From: Minisyncoccota bacterium
GTDB lineage: Bacteria; Patescibacteriota; Minisyncoccia; Phycocordibacterales; UBA9973
Reading direction: 5' to 3'
NCBI GenBank assembly: GCA_041664605.1
Contig: JBAYKO010000002.1
Location: forward strand, 7,453 to 71,452
DNA: 64,000 nt
The notes below the pieces were generated by a model that saw nothing but the letters and a program-made list of their open reading frames with translations, made no database searches and was not told the DNA's origin. The position numbers and the translations under genes are program-made. Positions 3,867 to 62,504 of this stretch are shown here, in pieces; positions within the stretch are counted from its first letter, which is position 1; the number at the start of each line of letters is the position of its first letter.

Positions 3867-4697
3867 TTATTTATTCTCGAACTTACGTTCCTTGGTTTCA
3901 GGATCAGTTACTATTCCTCTCTTAAAAACAATCGGACCAACTTTTTCAATTTGTTCTTCTTTTTTATTTTCAATTAAACGATTAAATGGACTATTATCTT
4001 TATTTCTTTGATCGTATCCAATCTTGATAATTTGTTCTTCCATTCTATTAAAAGCAAGTAAAAGATGTATTTTTCTTTCTTTTGGTGACATTTCTTCAAA
4101 ATTTTCATTATGACGTCCCCACCATTCACCTTTATTGTTTGGTTTTGTACCAAAATAACTCCCATTAATCAATTCATATGAGCAATTAGGGCAAATGGTA
4201 GTCTCATAATAAAGTGGTTCCAAACAATTAGAACAAATATTATTTTTTACTTGAAATCCACCATGATACACCCAATTATCTTTAAGGGAGCAAGCAAAAA
4301 TACCGAATTTTTGATGTTTAAACAAGCGACCAGTTTTTATTTTATTTCTTTCACTTCCATAAAGAGTTAAGCAAAATTCCCGTCCCTCTTGTGCTATTTC
4401 TTTTATTTTCTCAATTTCTTTTCTTTCAGAATTGTTTTCTACATCATTTGCTGTGATTGTAATAAATCGGGCAAAATGATAGGCATTCAAAAGATATTTT
4501 CTTTCTTTTGCATACCCATAAAGACTTTTAATCTTAAAGAAAGAATTTTTTTGACGCTCTATATGAGCTTTAAAACTTTTATCAAGATTTGGGAAAAATT
4601 CCGGACCACTTGGATAATGCCTATAAATAAAGAGTGTTTTCCTTATTTCATCTATGTATGAATTCATTAACGTCTGGGCAAATATTCTATTTTCCAT
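3867..4697 (-). CDS. Hypothetical 276-aa protein with a C-terminal CxxC...CxxC zinc ribbon, inserted between rpsZ and rplE
   Basis: Long ORF with CSNCLEPLYYETTICPNCSYE. It has its own upstream motif TTTACTTTTCT and a downstream terminator, and no recognisable family. Confidence 0.6.
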   Translation of the reverse strand: MENRIFAQTLMNSYIDEIRKTLFIYRHYPSGPEFFPNLDKSFKAHIERQKNSFFKIKSLYGYAKERKYLLNAYHFARFITITANDVENNSERKEIEKIKEIAQEGREFCLTLYGSERNKIKTGRLFKHQKFGIFACSLKDNWVYHGGFQVKNNICSNCLEPLYYETTICPNCSYELINGSYFGTKPNNKGEWWGRHNENFEEMSPKERKIHLLLAFNRMEEQIIKIGYDQRNKDNSPFNRLIENKKEEQIEKVGPIVFKRGIVTDPETKERKFENK

Positions 4698-4795: not shown

Positions 4796-5269
4796 TTAAT
4801 GCATATTTTGGAGAAGTTGATTGAGCGTTTTATCAATATCAGCAACAACGCTTTCTGCTGATTGTTCAAGTATTAAAGCTCTTTCTTCTGATTTCGCTAA
4901 TAATTTATTTTTCTTTCTTAAAGAAGAAGATTCGGTTGCTTTAGAAAGATATTTATTAATTTTCTTTACATCCTTCTTCATTCCTTTTACTTTTTCACTT
5001 AAACTATTAGCAAAGTCAATCATTTGATTAACCGCTTCTTTTTTCTCTATATCTGAATCAGATATTAATTCACTGTAATCTTTGCAAGCAACAACTAATT
5101 TCTTACAGGAATTAGCCGTTGTGTCCAAGCATAATTTTAATGCCTTAATATCCTCCTTTAAAGACCTAATTTCTTCATTAGTATTCTGGTACTGACTTTT
5201 TTTGGCTTGACCAAAGATGTTAACACTGACAACAATTGATAAAATCGCTAAAATTACTAGTTTTTTCAT
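4796..5269 (-). CDS. Hypothetical secreted/lipoprotein-like coiled-coil protein (157 aa), inserted in the spc operon
   Basis: N-terminal signal peptide MKKLVILAILSIVVSVNIFG; the rest is charged and coiled-coil. Confidence 0.55.
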   Translation of the reverse strand: MKKLVILAILSIVVSVNIFGQAKKSQYQNTNEEIRSLKEDIKALKLCLDTTANSCKKLVVACKDYSELISDSDIEKKEAVNQMIDFANSLSEKVKGMKKDVKKINKYLSKATESSSLRKKNKLLAKSEERALILEQSAESVVADIDKTLNQLLQNMH

Positions 5270-12470: not shown

Positions 12471-12896
12471 TTAAATCATTTTTACGTCAATATCAACCCC
12501 TGAAGGCAAACTTAAGTTTGTTAATGCTTCAATTGTTTTCTGAGACGGACTCATAATATCGATTAACCTTTTATGTATACGAATCTCAAATTGTTCTCGT
12601 GAGTTCTTATAAATAAAAGTTGATCTATTAACTGTATATTTTTTTATTTCAGTAGGAAGAGGTGTTGGACCAATAATTTTTGCATCATAACGCATTGCTG
12701 TATCCATAATCTGCTTTACTGAAGCATCGAGAATTTTACTCTCATATGCTCTAACTCTAATGCGTAATATTGCACCTTCTTCTTTCTTTGTTGCAGTAGC
12801 TACTTTTGAAACTTTTATTTTTTTTTCTTTCACTTCTTTTTCTTTATGTTCCTTCACTACTTTAGGTTTTGTTGTTTTTGTTTTTGTTGTAGGCAT
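12471..12896 (-). CDS. rpsJ: 30S ribosomal protein S10 with ~40-aa Lys-rich N-terminal extension
   Basis: Core RIRVRAYESKILDASVKQI and the rest match uS10. Confidence 0.88.
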   Translation of the reverse strand: MPTTKTKTTKPKVVKEHKEKEVKEKKIKVSKVATATKKEEGAILRIRVRAYESKILDASVKQIMDTAMRYDAKIIGPTPLPTEIKKYTVNRSTFIYKNSREQFEIRIHKRLIDIMSPSQKTIEALTNLSLPSGVDIDVKMI

Positions 12897-12935
12897 GACT
12901 TTATATTAAAGAACTATAAATTTCGCTTTTTTAAA

Positions 12936-14138
12936 TTAAGCAATAATTTTTGTTACAACTCCTGCTCCAACTGTCTTACCTCCTTCACGAATAGCAAAAT
13001 TCATTTGAGCTTCAAGTGCAATCGGTACAACTAATTTTACAGTGAAAGTTGCTGTATCTCCTGGCATAACCATTTCGGTTCCTGCTGCAAGAGTAACTTC
13101 TCCAGTAACGTCTGTTGTTCTGATATAGAATTGAGGCTTGTAACCTGTGAAAAACGGTGTGTGACGACCTCCTTCTTCTTTTTTCAAAATATAAACTTCT
13201 GCTTCAAAGTCTGTATGTGGAGTAACAGAACCAACTGCTGCTAAAACTTGTCCTCTAGTTAGGTCTTCTTTCTTTGTTCCTCTTAGAAGTATTCCAGCGT
13301 TATCTCCTGCCATACCTTCTTTTAGAGACTTATTGAACATTTCAATACCAGTAACAGTTGTTTTTACTGTTGGTTTAATACCAACAATTTCAACTTCTTC
13401 TCCAACCTTTACAATACCCCTTGCTATTTTACCAGTAGTAACTGTTCCTCTACCTTCAATTGAGAATATATCTTCAATAGGCATAAGGAAGGGTTTGTCG
13501 GTTTCTCTTACTGGAAGTGGAATCCAAGTATCGAGAGCATTAACAAGTTCCATAATCTTTTGTGACCATTCATTTGTCAAATCGTTTGATTCCAAAGCTT
13601 TAAGTGCTGAACCTTTTATAATAGGCGCACTTGCCCCGTCAAATCCTTGTTTTGTAAGAAGTTCTCTAACTTCTTCTTCAACTAGATCAATAAGTTCTTT
13701 ATCTTCAACCATATCGCACTTATTTAGAAAAACAATCATTTTTGGCACACCAACTTGTTTTGCAAGTAAAACGTGCTCTCTTGTTTGAGGCATAACTCCA
13801 TCAGTTGCTGCAATAACCAAAATAGCACCGTCCATTTGAGCAGCACCAGTGATCATATTTTTAATATAGTCAGCGTGCCCTGGAGCATCTATGTGAGCAT
13901 AGTGTCTAGTTGGAGTTTCATACTCAGAGTGGTGAAGAGCAATTGTAATTCCTCTTGCCTTTTCTTCTGGAGCATTATCGATTTTATCGACAGCTTCTAC
14001 TCTAGCGCCATAACCTTGAGCCTTTGCCATATCTAAGGTATGAGTGATCGCTGCTGTTAATGTTGTCTTACCGTGGTCAACGTGACCAATGGTTCCCACA
14101 TTTACGTGTGGTTTATCTCTTTTATATTCTTCTGCCAT
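12936..14138 (-). CDS. tuf: Elongation factor Tu
   Basis: 400 aa with [22 protein letters not shown] and NKCD motifs. Confidence 0.97.
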
Positions 14139-14317
14139 AAAATTTTTGAGCTAATAACTACAATTTAATAATCGAGAACTGAATACTAAATAATAACTAC
14201 TAGCTAATATTGATTAACTAATAAATACAAAAACACAATATGGATTAGATAATAGCTGAAATAAATAAAATAGTCAAATTTTTAGGGCTCTTTTTACTGA
14301 ATATCTTGTGGACAAGT

Positions 14318-14356
14318 AAATACCCGAGATTTTTACAAAAATCTCGGGTATTTTTT
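14318..14356 (-). terminator. Intrinsic terminator (acccgagatttttacaaaaatctcgggt + T run)
   Basis: Perfect inverted repeat followed by a T run; downstream of the 14420..14980 stop on the minus strand. Confidence 0.6.
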
Positions 14357-14419
14357 AAACCAAAAACCTTAAAACCTACCTCGGGATGATCCTTAGTTTA
14401 ATCAGTAAATATAGTTTAT

Positions 14420-14980
14420 CTATTGAAGCACAAGAGGAAATTCCAAAGTATCAGGAGTTGCCCCTGAAGGATCATTTTCAGTAAATACTACTTTCATTAG
14501 TGTTCCAGATTGAAGTCCAATACCGCCGTTATTAAAGATGACTGACGCGGTAAAAGGTACTGGCCCAAGTGTCATCCAGTTTGAAACAGGAATTAGATTA
14601 ATAATTCCTATTGGCCCCCAATTATTCCCATTTTGATAATAAAGTTGAGCTGTTCCCGCTTCTCCTTCAAACATGGTCCACCTACATCCTGTTGTTTGAT
14701 AATTTGTATTATCTACAACTCCATTAAAAACTACTGGTACGTTTGAGGAAATTGTAGAATTTGGAACAGGAGAATTTATTGTAAAACCACAATTACTAAG
14801 AGTTTGAATACCCCCTTGGTCTTTATTATCTAAATTATTATCTGTATTGAGAACATTATCCTTGTCTTGTGCTAATTTATCAGAATTTTTACCTGAAAAA
14901 TACATTACTCCACCGACAACTAACAATGCTACAACTACTAAAACTATTAAAATTGGCGCAAAACCTTTATTTTTATTCAT
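14420..14980 (-). CDS. Hypothetical membrane-anchored or secreted protein (186 aa) between tuf and fusA
   Basis: N-terminus MNKNKGFAPILIVLVVVALLVVGG is a signal anchor, faintly prepilin-like but with no Glu at +5; the rest is a Gly/Asn-rich beta domain. Confidence 0.5.
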   Translation of the reverse strand: MNKNKGFAPILIVLVVVALLVVGGVMYFSGKNSDKLAQDKDNVLNTDNNLDNKDQGGIQTLSNCGFTINSPVPNSTISSNVPVVFNGVVDNTNYQTTGCRWTMFEGEAGTAQLYYQNGNNWGPIGIINLIPVSNWMTLGPVPFTASVIFNNGGIGLQSGTLMKVVFTENDPSGATPDTLEFPLVLQ

Positions 14981-15186
14981 ATATTTTACTTTCAGACCAA
15001 GACTAATAAGCCTATGGTTTAAATAAATTATTAATACTTAAATTATAACACCCTGTAGTAGATTTTAGTAGTGCATTAAAAATGCGTCCCAATTTTGATC
15101 GGGACATTACTAAAATTCACTACGGAGTAAAATTAAAAACAGAAAACCCCCCGACCTGAGCCGGAGGGTTTTTAATAAAAATAGCA

Positions 15187-57296: not shown

Positions 57297-57444
57297 GGTT
57301 AAAATTAGCGGGTACGCCCGCACACTGACTTTGCCATTATTCTGCTTTTTAAATATAAAAAATTTATTTTAAATAACTTAACTGAACATAATTTGTGTTG
57401 AGACTATATCTATCGGCAGAATAAAAGCAATGGCAAAGTAAGTG

Positions 57445-57515
57445 TGCGGGTAGGGAGAATCGGACTCCCGTCTCATCCTTGGCAAGGACGTGTTCTACCA
57501 CTAAACCATACCCGC
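57445..57515 (-). tRNA. tRNA-Gly (anticodon GCC)
   Basis: Hand-folded cloverleaf: acceptor GCGGGTA/TACCCGC, D arm GTTT-AGTGGTA-GAAC, anticodon stem CGTCC/GGATG with loop TTGCCAA, T arm GGGAG-TCCGATT-CTCCC, discriminator A. Confidence 0.85.
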
Positions 57516-57931: not shown

Positions 57932-58663
57932 CTATCTCTCATTTCCAAATTCATCTGTCTGTTTTAGTCCTTTTTGTCTCCAATAGACTGATTTTATGGT
58001 CGCCTTTAGTGAGGGAATGGATTCTTTTAAATCATCGAGATAATAACCTTCTTTATTAACATAGGTTTTTTTAATAGGATCATAAGTAAAAATAGATTCT
58101 TGATAAGCAAACATACCAGCGCCATCAGGGTCAGTTGTCCTAATAGTTGTACCGAAATCAATAATAACAGGTTTACATTTATCATTTATTAAAACATTTC
58201 CGCTTCTTAAATCACGGTGAATAAACCCGGCTTTGTGCATTTTTTTTACTTCATTTTCTAAATCTTTAAAAAAGATATCTAATTCAAACCCTTCTGGAAG
58301 TTCTTTTTTACCACTTGATACATCCTCAATAGAAATACCTGATCTTTCCATAAAATAATACAATGCTCCTTTTTCATCTTTTAAAATAAGAATGGGTTCT
58401 GGGACAGAAACTCCTTTATTAAAAAGCTCCAATTGTGTATTAAACTCTTCTTCTAAATCATTACCTTTCATAAAAGGCACTTCTCGTATTTTTTTAAAAC
58501 AAATTCCAGATAATTGAGTATTTTCCAGTGCATTTACGGTGGCATTTCCACCATCACCAATAACTTCAAATTTATTAATAAAAAGCTCAAGATTATTAGT
58601 TACAATCTTTGACTTCTCGCTTTCTGGATTTCCTATTTTTAGAGTAATGTTATTTTTAACCAT
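57932..58663 (-). CDS. Minimal protein-kinase-like protein (243 aa)
   Basis: Gly-rich loop IGDGGNATV, catalytic loop HRDLRSGNVLIN and IIDFG (DFG) motif. Confidence 0.6.
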   Translation of the reverse strand: MVKNNITLKIGNPESEKSKIVTNNLELFINKFEVIGDGGNATVNALENTQLSGICFKKIREVPFMKGNDLEEEFNTQLELFNKGVSVPEPILILKDEKGALYYFMERSGISIEDVSSGKKELPEGFELDIFFKDLENEVKKMHKAGFIHRDLRSGNVLINDKCKPVIIDFGTTIRTTDPDGAGMFAYQESIFTYDPIKKTYVNKEGYYLDDLKESIPSLKATIKSVYWRQKGLKQTDEFGNER

Positions 58664-58666
58664 TTT

Positions 58667-58791
58667 ATTGTCGGGGGTGCCGAGAATCTCCCCTTACTGG
58701 GGCTGGTGATTTTCCCATCTACTATATGGAAAATCCTTTCAATTCTCGACGCAGGTGAAGCAGTTCACCTGCTTCACCCCTCACTTGCGTG
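58667..58791 (-). ncRNA. Conserved tRNA-trailer / 5'-UTR structured element ending in a copy of the tRNA-Pro 3' T-loop-to-acceptor segment
   Basis: ~85% identical to 60480-60593, with compensatory stem changes between the copies. It ends 6 nt before the kinase ATG with GATTCTCGGCACCCCCGAC, versus the tRNA 3' end GATTCTCGGCACCCCGA. Confidence 0.55.
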
Positions 58792-58862
58792 TCGGGGTGC
58801 CGAGAATCGAACTCGGGCCACATGATCCCAAATCATGGATACTACCGCTATACTACACCCCG
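58792..58862 (-). tRNA. tRNA-Pro (anticodon TGG)
   Basis: Acceptor CGGGGTG/CACCCCG, anticodon stem CATGA/TCATG with loop TTTGGGA, T arm CCGAG-TTCGATT-CTCGG. Confidence 0.85.
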
Positions 58863-59005
58863 GTATTTGTTTTTAATTAAAAAACTTTATATATATTATC
58901 ATATTTTTTCACAAAAACAATTTTTATTTTATGGATAAATTTAACTATTTGACAAAATAAATAAATGTGATAGTATAGTAATCAGAAAAAATAAAATTTG
59001 AAAAG

Positions 59006-59431
59006 ATGAAAAAAGTGTTTTATTTATTAGTTCTTATTGTGTTGATAGGTTGTTCCAATAAAGAAACTTTTTTGGAGAATGATTTTAAAGAAAATTCTTT
59101 TACACTTGAAGATGGGTCAAAAATTCAAATCCAAGTAAATCAAATAAACAAATATGAATTTTCTATTGAAGTAAAAAGTAGTGATACAAATTCTTTTATC
59201 GGTTTTGCCAAATCTAGTCCTATGGAAAGCACTAAACTCCAACCTTACATAGGTGATTTGGGTTTATATAAAGGACATTTTAAAGTTAATTTTGATCCAC
59301 AACCTGGACAATATTTAAATATCTATAAGATTGGAGTCGCAAAACACAATGAAAATCCAGGATATTTTATTGAACGAATAAAATATGTTTATTTCAGAAG
59401 TGAAACAGATTTTTGTATTCCAGAAAAATAA
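59006..59431 (+). CDS. Lipoprotein (141 aa)
   Basis: Signal peptide with lipobox LIGC. Confidence 0.5.
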   Translation: MKKVFYLLVLIVLIGCSNKETFLENDFKENSFTLEDGSKIQIQVNQINKYEFSIEVKSSDTNSFIGFAKSSPMESTKLQPYIGDLGLYKGHFKVNFDPQPGQYLNIYKIGVAKHNENPGYFIERIKYVYFRSETDFCIPEK

Positions 59432-59470
59432 AAATTCATTTAGAAAAGCCGGCTAAAACCGGCTTTTTGT

Positions 59471-59875
59471 TTACAAAATCACATTATCTAAAATTTTTAT
59501 TTTGGCTAAATTATTTTTAAGGTCAAGGTATACAGCAATCACTCCGAATTCCCATTCCCTATCGTCGGGGATATTTTTCTCCAGCAAATAAACTTGAATG
59601 GTAGTTGAAAGTCTTTTAATCTTCCATGGATGAACATTTTCTTCAGGTCTATAACCATCATTTGTTTCATGTGTAACACTTAAATTAGCCGAGTTTGTCT
59701 TAACCTCAAAGAAATATAGCTTATTTTTCTTTTCTCCAATAATATCAATTTCCCCACATTTCTTCGTATAATTCCTGTCTATTATTTTAAATCCTTGTTT
59801 TATTAGATATTTACAGGCCAATTTCTCGCCAATTTCCCCTATTTTTTGATTTTCTGAGGTAAAAACTTTTGGCAT
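59471..59875 (-). CDS. yraN: YraN/UPF0102-family endonuclease-like protein
   Basis: GEIGEKLACKYLIKQGFKIIDRNYTKKCGEIDII matches the UPF0102 signature. Confidence 0.65.
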   Translation of the reverse strand: MPKVFTSENQKIGEIGEKLACKYLIKQGFKIIDRNYTKKCGEIDIIGEKKNKLYFFEVKTNSANLSVTHETNDGYRPEENVHPWKIKRLSTTIQVYLLEKNIPDDREWEFGVIAVYLDLKNNLAKIKILDNVIL

Positions 59876-59892
59876 AAACGATTTGTTTCATA

Positions 59893-59944
59893 TGAAACAA
59901 TAAAAACTTACTTAAATGTGTTTCACGTGAAACGATTTTACTAT
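59893..59944. promoter_or_regulatory. Two perfect 14-bp palindromes GTTTCATATGAAAC and GTTTCACGTGAAAC, 24 bp apart, upstream of yraN
   Basis: GTTTCA-N2-TGAAAC dyads at 59893-59906 and 59931-59944; putative operator pair. Confidence 0.5.
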
Positions 59945-60180
59945 TTATTAGACAATTAATCTGTTTTAAAATACTTGTCTCTTAAAATACCATTATAAAA
60001 TAAGGATATTAGTTACAACACAGAAAAAATTTTAAGACAAAAATTGACTTGAAATCCCCAATAATTTGTGTCTTTTATGAACATATTCAACATAGTTATC
60101 CACAGTTTCCTTTAAAAAATCCTTAATTTAAAAGGATTTTTATAATTTATAAAAGACAGCAGTATTACAAAAAGACATAA

Positions 60181-60471
60181 TTACTTCAATCCTTTTAATT
60201 TTTCTTCCAATTTAACCATTTTAGCAGCCAATCTTCCTATCTTAGCTTTTTTCTTAAAAATTTCTTGATTTAATTCTTGTTTCTTTTCTTCATTATTTAT
60301 ATTACGTTCTCCATTTTCATATTTTCTTTGTTGTTCTAAAACAATGACTTCCTTCTCAAGTTTTTCTTTCTCTTCTTTTTTAACTTCTATTTCAACTTTA
60401 ATAGTCTCCTTTTCTGAGAAGTTATCTTCGTTATTTAAATTTGGTATTAAATTATTCTTGTTTATTTTCAT
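60181..60471 (-). CDS. Small charged coiled-coil protein (96 aa)
   Basis: K/E-rich ORF. Its ATG lies 9 nt downstream of the tRNA-Gly(TCC)-copy element. Confidence 0.45.
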   Translation of the reverse strand: MKINKNNLIPNLNNEDNFSEKETIKVEIEVKKEEKEKLEKEVIVLEQQRKYENGERNINNEEKKQELNQEIFKKKAKIGRLAAKMVKLEEKLKGLK

Positions 60472-60479
60472 AGGATATT

Positions 60480-60593
60480 GTCGGGATGGGAGAATCTCCC
60501 CTTACTGGGGCTGGTGATTTTCCCGTCTTCGACATGGAAAATCCTTTCGATTCTCCACGCAGATAAAGCAGTTTATCTGCTCATCTACGCTGG
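60480..60593 (-). ncRNA. Second copy of the conserved tRNA-trailer / 5'-UTR element, ending in a copy of the tRNA-Gly(TCC) 3' segment
   Basis: Shares AGAATCTCCCCTTACTGGGGCTGGTGATTTTCCC...ATGGAAAATCCTTTC.ATTCTC.ACGCAG with 58667-58791. Terminal GTCGGGATGGGAGAATC versus tRNA TGCGGGATGGGAGAATC. Confidence 0.55.
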
Positions 60594-60664
60594 TGCGGGA
60601 TGGGAGAATCGAACTCCCAACCTCAGTTTGGAAAACTGACGTTTTACCATTAAACTAATCCCGC
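60594..60664 (-). tRNA. tRNA-Gly (anticodon TCC)
   Basis: Acceptor GCGGGAT/ATCCCGC, D arm GTTT-AATGGTA-AAAC, anticodon stem TCAGT/ACTGA with loop TTTCCAA, T arm GGGAG-TTCGATT-CTCCC. Confidence 0.88.
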
Positions 60665-60770
60665 ATTGAATTTATTATTAAAATTCAAAAAGATTATAGC
60701 ATATTATTTTTATTTTTAAAATAAAATAACCTATTAATTTTCCCTTATTTTGTGTATAATTCGACTTAGG

Positions 60771-60842
60771 GCGCCCGTAGCTCAACGGATAGAGTACTTG
60801 TCTTCGGAACAAGTGATGTGGGTTCGATTCCTGCCGGGCGCA
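60771..60842 (+). tRNA. tRNA-Arg (anticodon TCG)
   Basis: Acceptor GCGCCCG/CGGGCGC, D arm GCTC-AACGGATA-GAGT, anticodon stem CTTGT/ACAAG with loop CTTCGGA, T loop TTCGATT. The T stem has two G-U pairs, so the fold is slightly weak. Preceded by TGTGTATAAT, an extended -10. Confidence 0.78.
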
Positions 60843-60998
60843 CAAAGAGAGAGAAAATATTAACTGCTTAATATTTTTGATGCTTTGTGCGAGACGGAAG
60901 TATGTTTTTTCAGCAGAAAAAACAACTGAGTCAGGGTCGGGAAATTTTAAGAGTGGCTGACGAGTAAAATATTCCTGACCACAAAGACAACAATAACC

Positions 60999-62504
60999 AT
61001 GAAACATCAATTTAAAATACCAGAAGAAGTTTCACGTGTAACAGAAACTTTAGAAAAAGCGGGATTTGAAGCCTATCTTGTTGGTGGGTGTGTTCGTGAT
61101 ATCTTATCGGACAAAGAGCCTAAAGACTGGGATGTGACCACAAATGCTACACCTGAGCAGATAATTGGTTTGTTTGAAAAGACTTATTACGAGAACTCTT
61201 TTGGAACAGTAGGAGTGGTTGTTTCATGTGAAACTAATATTGTTTCCTCTTCTATAACCTATAACCTAGAACCTAGAACCTGTATCATTGAGATAACTCC
61301 TTATAGATTAGAAGCAAAATATAGCGATAATAGACATCCAGACTCTGTTTCATTCAGTAATAAACTAGAAGATGATCTTAAGAGACGTGATTTTACTGTA
61401 AATGCCATAGCTTATAGTGTTTCTAAAGGACAGTTTATTGACCTTTATAACGGACAAAAGGACATAAAGGACAAAATAATCAGAACGGTAGGAAATCCAA
61501 AAGACAGGTTCCAAGAAGACGCACTTAGGCTTTTAAGAGCCGTTAGGTTTTTCGCTCAGCTTGGTTTCGTGATAGAAAAAGAAACAGGGGATGCGATCTT
61601 AGAAAATGCCCATCTTTTAAAAAATATTTCCAAAGAAAGAATCCGTGATGAATTTATAAAAATAATAATGTCGGAAGATCCAATGAAGGGAATTATCATG
61701 GCAGAAAAATTTGGAATTTTAAAATACATAATTCCAGAACTTGAAATTATGATTGGAGTAAAACAAAACGGTGATCACATTTATGATGTTTGGGAACACA
61801 GTCTTCGTGCCCTGCAACATGGAGCTGATAGAAATTTTTCTTTGGAAGTTAGATTGGCGGCACTGCTTCATGATATTGGAAAACCAAAAACTCGTTTTTG
61901 GTCAAAAGAAAAAAATGATTACACATTTTATGGTCATGATGTTGTTAGTGAAAGAATCACAAAAAAAATTCTTGATGATTTAAAATTTCCCAAAAAAACA
62001 ATTGAAACTGTCTCAAAACTCGTTAGAAATCATATGTTTTTTTCAGATATTGAAAAAATTACGCTTTCAGCAGTGAGAAGAATTGTAAGGAATGTTGGTG
62101 CAGATAATGTTTGGGATTTGATGAAAGTAAGAGCCTGTGATCGTATTGGAATGGGAAAGCCAAAAGAAGCTCCTTATCGTTTACGCAAATATGAATCAAT
62201 GATTGAAGAAGCAATGCGTTCTCCTGTATCTGTTGGAATGTTAAAAATTGATGGGTTAAAAATTATGAAAATCACAAATGAAAAACCAGGGAAAAAAATT
62301 GGCTATCTTTTGCATGCACTTCTTGAAGAAGTTTTTGATCATCCAGAATTAAACACTGAAGAATTTTTAGAAAATAGAGCGGTGGAATTAATAAAACTTT
62401 CTGAAAAAGAATTGCACGATCTCGGTGAAAAAGGGAAGGAGAAAAAAGATATTGAAGAAGAAAAAGAACTCGAAATAATCCGCAAGAGACACGGGGTGAG
62501 ATAA
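60999..62504 (+). CDS. cca: CCA-adding enzyme / poly(A) polymerase family with HD domain
   Basis: GGCVRDIL...DWDVTT head motif, RRDFTVNA and HD domain HDIGK. Contains an in-frame heptad insertion (61253-61283, SITYNLEPRTC). Confidence 0.88.
   Translation: MKHQFKIPEEVSRVTETLEKAGFEAYLVGGCVRDILSDKEPKDWDVTTNATPEQIIGLFEKTYYENSFGTVGVVVSCETNIVSSSITYNLEPRTCIIEITPYRLEAKYSDNRHPDSVSFSNKLEDDLKRRDFTVNAIAYSVSKGQFIDLYNGQKDIKDKIIRTVGNPKDRFQEDALRLLRAVRFFAQLGFVIEKETGDAILENAHLLKNISKERIRDEFIKIIMSEDPMKGIIMAEKFGILKYIIPELEIMIGVKQNGDHIYDVWEHSLRALQHGADRNFSLEVRLAALLHDIGKPKTRFWSKEKNDYTFYGHDVVSERITKKILDDLKFPKKTIETVSKLVRNHMFFSDIEKITLSAVRRIVRNVGADNVWDLMKVRACDRIGMGKPKEAPYRLRKYESMIEEAMRSPVSVGMLKIDGLKIMKITNEKPGKKIGYLLHALLEEVFDHPELNTEEFLENRAVELIKLSEKELHDLGEKGKEKKDIEEEKELEIIRKRHGVR
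61253..61283 (+). repeat. CTATAAC/CTAGAAC heptad array inserted in-frame inside cca
   Basis: CTATAACCTATAACCTAGAACCTAGAACCTG is translated as ITYNLEPRT within the head domain. Confidence 0.7.

Follow-up and report, generated by a model that had tools for sequence, protein, structure and literature searches.

What is the structured element that lies directly behind two tRNA genes of a Candidatus Paceibacterota (CPR) contig and stops just short of the next start codon? The window, the whole 64-kb stretch of this contig that was analysed, contains four tRNA genes and no more according to ARAGORN, and an Rfam cmscan scores the same four. Two of them, tRNA-Pro(TGG) at 58792–58862 and tRNA-Gly(TCC) at 60594–60664, both on the minus strand, were called correctly in an earlier note on this DNA; both programs show that the encoded CCA carries the glycine gene on to 60591. 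The elements behind them (58669–58791 and 60479–60593, minus strand) share 80.5% identity across 123 aligned columns. From hairpin to tail the identity is 85.6% over 104 nt, in agreement with the 85% over about 105 nt first estimated, and the 3' 35 nt do not differ at all. The window contains a 27-nt core exactly twice, where 100 shuffles predict 0 occurrences, and the two folding energies lie far below those of shuffled sequences (z = −5.4 and −6.8). The evidence assembled below identifies the Pro and Gly elements as local, miniaturised members of a structured RNA family that occupies tRNA 3' flanks in Paceibacteria, bacteria of very small genome. It is possible that the units are tRNA-derived punctuation marks cut by tRNA-processing enzymes; this reading, which rests on anatomy and context, is the one we prefer, although we give it somewhat less than an even chance.

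The Pro unit follows a tRNA gene (62.6 bits with the Rfam tRNA model) that does not encode CCA and has a promoter-like site upstream in the promoter scan. It opens with an acceptor-like 5' strand, GGGGUG (58775–58780), identical to tRNA positions 2–7 and paired in the MFE fold with CACCCC of the tail. At the acceptor/T-stem junction stands a 9-bp hairpin, GCAGGUGAA-CUGC-UUCACCUGC, followed by GU (58751–58772). The P1 5' strand CGAGAAU, which complements the T-stem 3' strand and the 3' half of the T loop, leads into the junction UGAAAG (58736–58748). A reduced body (58690–58735) comprises the hairpin GAUUUUCC..GGAAAAUC, the junction ACCAG and the hairpin CCCC-AGUAA-GGGG. The tail, GAUUCUCGGCACCCCCGACA (58669–58688), repeats tRNA-Pro from the T loop as far as the discriminator and a following CA, with a single C added. 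A Pkinase/RIO-like gene (Pfam) starts with the ATG at 58663.

The Gly unit has the same plan. Its tRNA gene has a promoter-like TTTAAA-16-TATAAT at 60720–60693. The 5' strand, GCGUAGAUG (60582–60590), starts right behind the encoded CCA and repeats in degenerate form the acceptor 5' strand GCGGGAU(G); only GAUG/CAUC pairs with the tail. The 9-bp hairpin GCAGAUAAA-CUGC-UUUAUCUGC, again followed by GU (60559–60580), precedes the P1 5' strand GGAGAAUC and the junction GAAAG (60544–60556). The reduced body (60498–60543) has the same two hairpins with identical stems, the P2 loop being the sole difference. The tail, GAUUCUCCCAUCCCGACA (60479–60496), copies the 3' part of tRNA-Gly with one C missing, and a 96-aa K/E-rich ORF begins at ATG 60471. 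The acceptor-like stem of the Gly copy has only 4 bp, and an alternative fold is 8 kcal/mol more stable than the one consistent with the family; both tell against the punctuation reading.

Each element thus ends, as the earlier note had observed, in a near-exact copy of the tail of its own tRNA just before the next ATG. In the Pro tail, GATTCTCGGCACCCC, 15 nt of tRNA-Pro are copied before the additional C; in the Gly tail, GATTCTCCCATCCCG, 15 nt of tRNA-Gly are copied before the missing one. Shuffled tails score 5.8 on average and 11 at most. The ATG lies 5 nt (Pro) and 7 nt (Gly) past the ...GACA end of the tail, or 7 and 9 nt past the discriminator-like A. The claim that three helices covary between the two copies holds for the first helix, which shows two compensatory pairs and is better read as the 9-bp hairpin with a CUGC loop, in a register conserved in relatives. 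It does not hold for the GAUUUUCC/GGAAAAUC and CCCC/GGGG helices; these are identical in both copies and therefore carry no information on covariation.

Units are present at all four tRNAs of the window, and every one of them ends 7–18 nt ahead of a start codon. The unit behind tRNA-Arg(TCG) (60844–60987, plus strand) precedes the gene for the CCA-adding enzyme (ATG 60999). It has a CUGC hairpin at 60854–60877, a strand CUUUGUGCG (60883–60891) that complements the tRNA end plus flank, a body of the large P2/P3 type, and a direct copy, CACAAAGA, at 60980–60987. The body was matched at 60888–60980 (41.1 bits, E 5e-8) by R2, a covariance model of the large-type unit body, which finds no match in the reduced body of the Pro unit. 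The fourth unit, behind tRNA-Gly(GCC) (57308–57444, minus strand), has no body. It consists of a long AT-rich palindromic linker whose arms begin inside the tRNA end, then GUGCGGG-CG-UACCCGC, an inverted and a direct copy of the acceptor 3' strand, and then UAAUUUUAACC; a ZIP transporter gene starts at ATG 57296. The terminator scan scored this mini-unit as terminator-like at 57321–57308. Outside the window the source contig adds 7.7 kb (L035), with no tRNA and no additional copy of the element.

Relatives of the element were found in other Paceibacteria, in a sample of about 290 kb from 10 genomes in which all but one of the relatives' loci (labelled L0xx) were anchored on the same tRNA cluster. 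Kinase homologues, tried as a route to close relatives, gave at best proteins of only 41–54% identity, and three loci from other assemblies of the same organism (L001, L002 and L036) are 100% identical and so add no variation. Larger homologous units follow about half of the tRNA genes sampled in relatives. Tail repeats of 15–19 nt occur downstream of 9–10 of 30 tRNAs and upstream of none of the 30. R1, a covariance model of the scaffold built from five relatives with no window sequence, matches both window copies, the Gly copy at 60542–60590 (51.1 bits, E 3e-11) and the Pro copy at 58734–58782 (45.9 bits, E 9e-10), and has no other match in the window or in control loci. The two copies also share the features by which R1 members are recognised: an acceptor-like strand, a 9-bp hairpin with a YUNC (mostly CUGC) loop, GU, the T-stem complement plus 4 nt, GAAAG, and a tRNA 5' of the unit on the same strand.

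The shared order is an acceptor-like 5' strand, the 9-bp CUGC hairpin, GU, the T-stem complement, GAAAG, a body of variable size and the copy of the tRNA tail. The hairpin occupies the place of the D and anticodon arms, and the complement strand covers the T stem plus the 3' half of the tRNA T loop. In 7 of 10 aligned hairpin-bearing units, from five genomes, the hairpin lies at the acceptor/T-stem junction (window Pro and Gly, two units of L017, L019 Arg, L038 Pro and L040 Arg); in window Arg, L026 Arg and L031 Leu it stands directly behind the tRNA instead. The 4 nt behind the T-stem complement follow five different T-loop sequences. That the whole GAA of GAAAG complements the T-loop TTC was considered and dropped: correspondence with the T loop can be demonstrated for no more than the 4 nt before it, and GAAAG is treated as a conserved junction. 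At least eight units end with the discriminator plus 1–2 nt. What is conserved is therefore not the 105-nt core on which the earlier note had focused but a scaffold of 5' strand, CUGC hairpin, GU, T-stem complement, GAAAG and tail. The body of the window copies, with the junctions UGAAAG, ACCAG and A where the large type has GAAAG, GG and none, is a lineage-specific replacement of the larger two-hairpin body.

Several other arrangements were seen in the relatives. In several of them a terminator-like hairpin stands between tRNA and unit and a second one behind the unit; many units are flanked in this way rather than adjoining an ORF. The 5' strand of L038-Arg, L027 and L031-His is a perfect 19–21-nt complement of the real tRNA, and the tail has decayed. 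L026 has a copy of tRNA positions 1–52 beside an intact tRNA. L026 and L027 differ downstream of tRNA-Gly(GCC), both with a unit or remnant and with diverged flanks.

The earlier note had named three outcomes that would speak against its proposal: copies of the core away from tRNAs, the two copies being terminal repeats of a larger mobile element, and a lack of covariation in a larger alignment. None of these was found. Every R1 or R2 match lies in a tRNA 3' flank, the R2 match at the window tRNA-Arg included; the gene order between the two copies is the same in relatives that lack them; and the hairpin and P3 both show compensatory changes. In the hairpin, both sides change in 9 of 9 pairs and 100% of cells are paired; in P3, compensatory changes affect 10 of 17 pairs, the share of paired cells is 92.7% and a single G·U is invariant. 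The sense (tRNA) strand folds better than the antisense strand in all 16 units, with summed energies of −889 versus −757 kcal/mol and 47 versus 21 G·U pairs. The covarying helices and this strand preference thus identify the element as a sense-strand RNA. Between the window and L038, which have CCA enzymes of 66% identity, the unit behind tRNA-Pro is orthologous: its scaffold is retained together with the tail plus flank, CCCCGACAAU, and its hairpin has three compensatory pairs. More generally, the scaffold is conserved among genomes whose CCA enzymes are only about 66–70% identical.

The family is unannotated. None of the 4227 models of Rfam 15 gives a credible match on the units in the window, L017, L019, L022, L027, L031, L035, L038 or L040; weak matches to 'BSnc120' are terminator hairpins. 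The tRNA model (RF00005) does not hit either window element in cmscan even at E up to 10, nor does ARAGORN, and no models match for an SRP, tmRNA or Y-RNA-like mimic. A hammerhead or other small self-cleaving ribozyme was rejected, as the CUGANGA core is absent and no Rfam ribozyme model matches. For a T-box riboswitch there is no Rfam match, and the tail repeats the tRNA end instead of complementing it. The terminator scan finds no intrinsic terminator in the Pro or Gly element. An intron in the T loop is rejected since the upstream tRNA is already complete; the group I intron of Patescibacteria tRNAs described in a preprint lies in the anticodon loop at position 35/36 and is unrelated to the units. 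A primer-binding site for tRNA-primed reverse transcription does not fit, as the inverted copy corresponds to genomic flank and not to CCA, and no reverse transcriptase is present. A MITE or insertion-sequence derivative is likewise discounted: the arms differ from one tRNA to another, the repeat is anywhere between 7 and 21 nt long, and model matches occur only in tRNA flanks. Pattern searches of genome contigs (AATCACCAGNNNNAGTAANNNNAGATTC) and metagenome contigs (GAAAATCACCAGNNNNAGTAANNNNARA), which targeted the lineage-specific body rather than the scaffold, gave chance matches without hairpin complementarity; viral contigs gave nothing, or chance matches in G+C-rich phage DNA. No description of a family of units that copy tRNA tails was found in the literature.

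How might such units act as punctuation? They would be made as part of the tRNA's own transcript: there is a promoter-like site at each tRNA of the window, and the promoter scan of the window shows no convincing promoter between tRNA and ORF. The 3' strand of the long closing helix is the tail copy, which starts in the second half of the T loop, takes in the 3' strands of the T stem and the acceptor and ends at the discriminator; its 5' strand is the complement of that copy, so that the helix reproduces the coaxial acceptor/T-stem stack of the tRNA in question. The CUGC hairpin branches off at the very point where the D and anticodon arms of a real tRNA depart, and a body forming a three-way junction takes the place of the T loop. 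RNase P may cut the 5' side of the unit, and an RNase Z-type activity may cut behind the discriminator-like A. Such cuts would split the co-transcript into tRNA, module and an mRNA with a leader of 7–9 nt. A cut where the Gly 5' strand begins, right after the encoded CCA, would leave a mature tRNA 3' end. Left uncut, a structure of −48 kcal/mol would adjoin the start codon, and its removal may benefit translation; the genes of this region show no Shine-Dalgarno sequence. In L031 the kinase homologue starts 8 nt behind a real tRNA-Val, and in L030 cca starts 10 nt behind a real tRNA-Leu, the same spacing as from tail to ATG in the window. The units would have arisen, most simply, by local duplication of tRNA sequence, with bodies swapped between units by recombination.

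The mimicry is incomplete. A stack of the t-element or mascRNA type is present in the Pro copy (GGGGUG/CACCCC and CGAGAAU/AUUCUCG, then G-A, with the hairpin branching at the junction), but it is weaker in the Gly copy with its 4-bp acceptor part and absent from the window Arg unit. The tRNA-like minihelix proposed earlier does not extend to a T loop or elbow, since the junction GAAAG and two hairpins replace the T loop; this, and the lack of any score with the tRNA covariance model, weigh against the punctuation reading. So does the Arg closing helix, which is made of the last 3 tRNA nt plus flank (CACAAAGA) and not of an acceptor stem; the topology of copy and inverted copy is thus more general than tRNA mimicry. 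Units in relatives with a terminator-like hairpin on either side cannot have a role at an mRNA start, and the 5'-strand complements of 19–21 nt fit better with pairing to the tRNA or with a process at the DNA level than with mimicry.

A rather unlikely alternative, in our view, is that each unit is a small non-autonomous element which has spread from one tRNA locus to another and whose structure serves the element itself. Such elements could move by ectopic recombination anchored on the conserved T-arm sequence, or through a small circular single-stranded intermediate that integrates by means of a copy/inverted-copy stem imitating the tRNA-gene target; the tail beside the ORF would then be the displaced original end of the tRNA. 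If a circle made of tail, linker, inverted copy and body recombined with a tRNA gene by a single crossover, the product should have just the order seen in the units: tRNA tail, linker, inverted copy, body, tail. The direct repeat of the tRNA 3' part that marks integrative elements is indeed present, and the earlier suggestion of an integrative footprint survives as far as the behaviour of a duplicating, recombining repeat is concerned: there are tandem arrays parted by tail copies (L017 after tRNA-Gly, L031 after tRNA-His), 107 nt identical at two tRNA-Gly loci of L038 with the junction inside shared T-arm sequence, and decayed or truncated remnants (L026, L038 Gly-gcc). The tRNAs that carry units vary among genomes, bodies are more similar within a genome than between genomes, the repeat may take in flank past the tRNA (window Arg, L027), and the partial tRNA copy of L026 is in keeping with such duplication. 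The suggestion finds no support where machinery and cargo are concerned. Neither in the units nor beside them is there an integrase, a transposase or a reverse transcriptase, the sole nearby recombinase being a syntenic Xer-like gene. Between the tail repeats there are only 100–250 nt, with no ORF, and neither a recombinase gene nor kilobase cargo; a search for tail copies farther away, such as would delimit a large island, turned up the T arms of other tRNAs alone. The viral contigs yielded nothing to support it. The arms match the local tRNA, for which a mobile element with fixed ends would need extra steps. Moreover, the deep orthology of the Pro unit and its compensatory changes point to constraint rather than transient parasitism, and a hairpin at a tRNA-like junction is needless for a DNA recombination site.

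The long complements invite a different explanation, a conformational switch, which we consider distinctly unlikely. Here segment 2, the inverted copy, pairs either with segment 1, the tRNA 3' end, or with segment 3, the direct copy; folding or removal of the upstream tRNA would set whether segment 3 and the start region 7–9 nt downstream are locked or free, and downstream gene expression would thereby be tied to the maturation of the tRNA. All family members have the 1-2-3 topology, even where the repeat is flank as in window Arg, and such a switch would profit from the perfect complementarity to the real tRNA in L027, L031-His and L038-Arg, from the pairing of tRNA with unit strands in whole-transcript folds, and from the nearness of all window units to start codons. 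In relatives, however, many units precede a terminator or a convergent gene and no ORF. The downstream genes (kinase, unknown 96-aa protein, ZIP transporter, cca, MazG) are unrelated, so that no common regulatory logic is visible. Pairing of segments 1 and 2 would unfold the tRNA, and a simple switch needs neither the hairpin nor the body, both conserved and covarying. Nor is it at all probable that the units are neutral scars, functionless and decaying leftovers of tRNA duplications or old integrations at tRNA sites. Direct repeats of tRNA 3' ends are a classic mark of integration and some units are clearly decayed, but compensatory changes in the hairpin and P3, the invariant G·U, the strand asymmetry in 16 of 16 units and the retention of the scaffold between divergent genomes all speak for selection on the RNA. 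Since the helices are palindromic both strands can fold, and a unit read from the opposite strand would end in an intact T-loop sequence and tRNA 3' strands. Nevertheless an RNA from that strand, or a palindrome bound by protein as double-stranded DNA, is very improbable indeed: the sense strand folds better throughout, its G·U pairs would turn into A·C mismatches, 8 of 8 loops read CUGC on the tRNA strand and none GCAG, and in the window such an RNA would run antisense into tRNA and ORF.

CPR bacteria (Patescibacteria) account for much of bacterial diversity, and to our knowledge almost nothing is known of their non-coding RNAs or of how their compact, Shine-Dalgarno-poor transcripts mature. 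It is conceivable, though on balance we doubt it, that the units are a new CPR class of structured RNA within tRNA transcription units, with a closing helix taken from the 3' end of the host tRNA, acting either as tRNA punctuation that yields mRNAs with short leaders and discrete small RNAs or in propagation without proteins via a target-imitating RNA or single-stranded intermediate. If the punctuation reading is true, this would be the first bacterial counterpart of the organellar definition of mRNA ends by t-elements or tRNA punctuation; if the alternative is true, it would be an element that encodes no protein and spreads through imitation of tRNA genes. With the R1 and R2 models, family members can be counted in all CPR genomes. 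The tail copies could be mistaken in annotation for attachment-site scars of integrated elements.

Processing signals that resemble tRNAs are known from the t-elements of plant mitochondria, from mascRNA at the 3' end of MALAT1 (an example found in PMC8457004) and from mitochondrial tRNA punctuation. Like them, the units would place a helix imitating the acceptor and T arms in a longer transcript beside an mRNA end, presumably read by RNase P and RNase Z; and as in tRNA punctuation, real tRNAs hold the same position in relatives, 8–10 nt before an ATG. The units differ from these signals in that they are bacterial (CPR), copy the sequence of the adjacent cognate tRNA, and are multi-copy and partly arrayed; their cleavage is a prediction. 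They also exchange the T loop for a three-way junction and the D and anticodon arms for a single CUGC hairpin. Integrative elements, too, attach in tRNA genes, among them a class with its site in the T loop, and have cis-mobilisable derivatives that lack an integrase. The units share with these the direct repeat from T loop to tRNA 3' end, an intact tRNA on one side with a displaced tail on the other, and tandem arrays; unlike them, they span 100–250 nt without an integrase and have an extra inverted tail copy, a covarying RNA-like interior and arms that depend on the tRNA. In integration of the CTX-phage type, a folded single-stranded attP hairpin imitates the chromosomal target. Two inverted target copies about 60–110 nt apart in the units could likewise fold, in a strand-specific manner, into a target-like duplex, but the target would be a tRNA gene rather than dif, and there is no phage genome, replication function or evidence of single-stranded DNA. 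As in a T-box riboswitch, the sequence of a leader RNA is matched to one specific tRNA; whereas the T-box pairs with the anticodon and the NCCA end, the units copy the tRNA tail and its complement and have no specifier or T-box sequence. REP/BIME, the Rickettsia palindromic elements and Correia elements are intergenic repeats with fixed ends that are not tied to tRNA genes. The units resemble them in being short, structured, multi-copy and intergenic and in evolving in concert within a genome, and differ in that each rebuilds its closing helix from the local tRNA.

Four tRNA genes were called concordantly by ARAGORN and Rfam in the window: tRNA-Gly(GCC) (57445–57515, minus), tRNA-Pro(TGG) (58792–58862, minus), tRNA-Gly(TCC) (60594–60664, minus; CCA encoded) and tRNA-Arg(TCG) (60771–60842, plus). 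Directly 3′ of both tRNA-Pro and tRNA-Gly(TCC), on the minus strand, lies an element of about 115–120 nt (58669–58791 and 60479–60593, respectively) that reaches the next ORF. The Pro and Gly elements are 85.6% identical across the 104 nt from hairpin to tail and 80.5% identical across all 123 aligned columns. The final 35 nt of their common body are identical, and a 27-nt core occurs exactly twice in the 64 kb and in none of 100 shuffles. Each element closes with an exact 15-nt copy of the tail of its own tRNA (GATTCTCGGCACCCC for Pro, GATTCTCCCATCCCG for Gly), followed by one indel in each and then GACA. The pairing of two related elements with cognate tails, proposed in an earlier note, is thus verified, as is the specificity of the tails: just 4–6 nt of each discriminate between the tRNAs (GGCAC(C) versus CCAT), and these match the local tRNA. 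The opposite helix strand varies with them (CGAGAAU in Pro versus GGAGAAUC in Gly; GGGGUG in Pro versus GAUG in Gly). The ATG of a Pkinase/RIO-like gene (58663) is found 7 nt past the discriminator-like A of the Pro element, and that of a 96-aa K/E-rich ORF (60471) 9 nt past the corresponding A of the Gly element.

The CCA-adding enzyme encoded at 60999–62504 has a 100% identical counterpart in a Candidatus Paceibacterota MAG, and the next relatives are only about 70% identical. Contigs encoding homologues of this enzyme and of the kinase supplied about 290 kb from ten genomes. The sampling is limited in that every locus but one is anchored on one and the same syntenic tRNA cluster. In this sample roughly 18 of 35 tRNA genes, about half, have a unit of the same design 3′ of them on the same strand, usually with a larger body. 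From 5′ to 3′ the unit consists of a linker, a complement of the acceptor 3′ strand, an optional hairpin followed by GU, a complement of the T stem, GAAAG, a body, and a direct copy of the tRNA tail. The linker varies from none at all, through 8 nt, to a terminator-like hairpin; the optional hairpin, where present, is a perfect stem of 9–12 bp with a CUGC loop (rarely CUUC or UUUC). The strand before GAAAG complements the 3′ strand of the T stem together with the final 4 nt of the T loop, and its 4 T-loop-pairing nucleotides vary in step with five different T loops (AAUC, AUUC, AAUU, AUUU and ACUU). The tail copy starts midway through the T loop and extends 1–2 nt past the discriminator. Among 30 tRNAs, direct tail copies (score at least 9) lie downstream of 10 and upstream of none; for inverted copies the corresponding numbers are 11 and 2.

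Homology was assessed with two covariance models that contain no window sequence, R1 for the scaffold (five relatives) and R2 for the large body (seven relatives); the alignments are small and partly hand-guided, and the brief calibration makes the E-values rough. R1 matches the Gly unit at 60542–60590 (minus; 51.1 bits, rough E 3e-11) and the Pro unit at 58734–58782 (minus; 45.9 bits, rough E 9e-10); the rest of the window and six unrelated control loci give no match. The Pro and Gly elements belong to a wider family of tRNA flanks. Scans of large collections with patterns from the body identical in the Pro and Gly copies gave chance matches only, the patterns being too lineage-specific.

All four tRNAs of the window carry a unit, since a body-less version follows tRNA-Gly(GCC) and an R2 match follows tRNA-Arg; every unit ends 7–18 nt ahead of a start codon. 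The R2 matches are confined to tRNA 3′ flanks, and the one in the window (60888–60980, plus; 41.1 bits, rough E 5e-8) falls within the unit after tRNA-Arg (60844–60987, plus). This unit comprises a CUGC hairpin, the tRNA end and flank repeated in inverted orientation, and a body of the large type with hairpins P2 and P3, and it ends 11 nt ahead of the ATG of the CCA-adding enzyme. Its closing helix is built from the last 3 nt of the tRNA and 5 nt of flank, not from the acceptor stem. The element after tRNA-Gly(GCC) (57308–57444, minus) looks like a body-less unit. A long AT-rich palindromic linker, whose arms start within the last bases of the tRNA, leads to GUGCGGG-CG-UACCCGC, in which the acceptor 3′ strand is copied once inverted and once direct, and then to a U-rich tail; the element is 11 nt ahead of the ATG of a ZIP transporter and scores as a terminator as well.

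The relationship between scaffold and body is clarified by Parcubacteria LiPW_30 (locus L038), where tRNA-Pro is followed by a unit that can be aligned with the Pro unit of the window in two blocks, one from the 5′ strand over hairpin, GU and T-stem complement to GAAAG, the other comprising the tail with its flank (CCCCGACAAU). The stretch separating them is a large P2/P3 body in L038 and a short two-hairpin body in the window. Three double, pair-preserving changes separate the hairpins (GCAGGUGAA/UUCACCUGC versus GCGAAUGAA/UUCAUUCGC). The alignment and these paired changes indicate that the scaffold is old and constrained. What the earlier note took for the shared body, its “105-nt core”, is a lineage-specific, reduced replacement.

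Covariation of the helices, first suspected from two copies, persists in larger alignments and, with the strand bias described below, is evidence that the structure is single-stranded and lies on the sense strand. In ten units, seven of them collected by a search that demanded perfect stems, 9 of 9 hairpin pairs vary on both strands and every cell (100%) is paired; none of 500 shuffles reaches the observed level, and slid controls are about 40% paired. The perfect-stem search found CUGC hairpins solely in units and solely on the tRNA strand. In P3 of the large bodies, 10 of 17 pairs are compensatory and 92.7% of cells are paired, with an invariant G·U beside an invariant GGUC/GACC base. All 16 units compared are more stable in the tRNA orientation than as the reverse complement (summed −889 versus −757 kcal/mol), with 47 versus 21 G·U pairs. 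Where tails have decayed, in locus L027, the changes are mostly C to U and preserve G·U pairing with the 5′ strand. The three-way-junction fold of the family is close to the minimum-energy fold for the Pro copy (−47.7 versus −48.5 kcal/mol); for the Gly copy, an alternative is favored over it by 8 kcal/mol.

Promoter-like sites with extended −10 boxes occur upstream of the tRNAs. Because scans of the window revealed no convincing promoter separating any tRNA from its ORF, and nothing terminator-like within the Pro or Gly elements, cotranscription of tRNA, unit and ORF is the simplest reading. A Shine-Dalgarno sequence is absent from all ORFs inspected in this region. The kinase is repeatedly placed directly behind a tRNA or a copy of a tRNA tail, for in L031, at 4168–4251 (plus), its closest long-contig homologue (42% identity) starts 8 nt past a real tRNA-Val (GGGCGCA CAGAAUAU AUG). 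Similarly, in L030 the gene for the CCA-adding enzyme starts 10 nt past a real tRNA-Leu. The tail-to-ATG junctions of the window, CCCCCGA CAAUAAA AUG (Pro) and AUCCCGA CAAUAUCCU AUG (Gly), look just like these.

Other features were noted nearby and in the syntenic loci. Between the 96-aa ORF and the UPF0102 gene lie a DnaA-box-like cluster (60070–60107, minus; CTGTGGATAAC..., TGTGGATAA type) and a 14-bp palindrome, GTTTCACGTGAAAC (59920–59933). Both motifs are found again at the corresponding position in L019, L022, L026, L027, L030 and L038, and this region may be origin-associated or regulatory. In L040 the syntenic Xer-like tyrosine recombinase gene adjoining rpsO (12861–15074, minus) contains an intein with a LAGLIDADG domain, and its product is 737 aa rather than the usual 300 or so. 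Beyond the window on the source contig, JGI Ga0376277_0001269 of 106,580 nt (L035, 3560–4900), about 1.3 kb of relatively G+C-rich DNA, most of it without a called gene and with no Rfam match at gathering thresholds, may represent a pseudogene or an RNA that has escaped annotation.

The analysis establishes how the units are built and conserved, on which strand they lie and in what context. As to function, we tentatively favor the idea that they are modules of tRNA-like punctuation, which would be transcribed, cleaved and possibly beneficial. The closing helix reproduces the acceptor/T-stem stack of the neighboring tRNA, the hairpin occupies the position of the D and anticodon arms, and the helix has a discriminator-like A at its end. 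Cleavage of RNase P type at the 5′ edge, and of RNase Z type behind this A, would yield three products: tRNA, module, and an mRNA with a 7–9-nt leader. At tRNA-Gly(TCC), where the 5′ strand of the unit starts right after the encoded CCA, the 5′-edge cut would generate the mature tRNA end in a single step. Where a terminator follows the unit in relatives, a discrete small RNA would be set free by these cuts, and its conserved body (a CGGAG/GAG internal loop and the G·U-containing P3) would presumably bind some partner.

Several observations do not fit simple mimicry. The closing helix of the Arg unit is built from flank. In L027, in the His unit of L031 and in the Arg unit of L038, the tails are decayed and the 5′ strand is perfectly complementary to the real tRNA over 19–21 nt, running beyond the tRNA end in L027. 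Often the tRNA end, linker and inverted copy together make up a single long palindrome. The order that holds in general is therefore that of local 3′-end sequence, inverted copy, body, direct copy. This topology also suits a self-propagating repeat or a three-segment switch in which the start region downstream would respond to the state of the tRNA. The repeat is unlikely, yet the more serious of the two: a single crossover between a tRNA gene and a small circle would generate exactly the observed layout, and the family shows tandem arrays, a non-orthologous distribution, remnants, homogenization within genomes (107 identical nt at two tRNA-Gly loci of L038) and, in L026, a stray copy of tRNA positions 1–52. 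Against it, the arms are tRNA-specific, no recombinase was found in or next to the units, and no counterpart in viral contigs. The switch is decidedly doubtful, as many units have no ORF after them. Covariation and strand asymmetry weigh both against neutral scars left in the tRNA flanks, which are very improbable, and against a role on the opposite strand or as double-stranded DNA, which is scarcely credible. Punctuation and self-propagation are mutually compatible.

Three loci show rearranged or repeated segments. The 107-nt identity between the tRNA-Gly(TCC) and tRNA-Gly(GCC) units of L038 (7007–7170 and 9417–9617, minus) begins in the T-arm-derived GGGAGAATCGAAAG, and the second copy is cut short and has no tail, which points to recent copying or gene conversion between these loci. 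In L026 (4635–5000, minus), the region upstream of the intact tRNA-Gly(TCC) (4563–4634) holds the copy of positions 1–52 of tRNA-Gly, then about 170 nt, then GATGGGAGAATCGAA, which repeats the T loop and 3′ strands in inverted orientation, and lastly a promoter-like TATAAT ahead of the tRNA itself. The locus has the look of a rearrangement whose breakpoint lies in the T arm. In L017, the hairpins of the linkers that separate units (AAAATGAAAAT-stem-ATTTTCATTTATGT) recur at two tRNA loci (2440–2700 and 4940–5045, minus), their central stems differing by compensatory changes, so that the terminator-like linker is seemingly part of the repeated unit.

The RNA family is unannotated: no Rfam family matches any unit of the window or the relatives, the units are not tRNAs, and they have neither a ribozyme core nor T-box features nor, in the loci sampled, an integrase. 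Their closest functional counterparts are tRNA-like processing signals, namely the t-elements of plant mitochondria, mascRNA/MALAT1 and mitochondrial tRNA punctuation. In layout, the units come closest to the attachment sites of integrative elements in tRNA genes and to the folded single-stranded attP of CTX-type phages. The principle of the unit is a new variation on tRNA mimicry or on duplication of a tRNA site.
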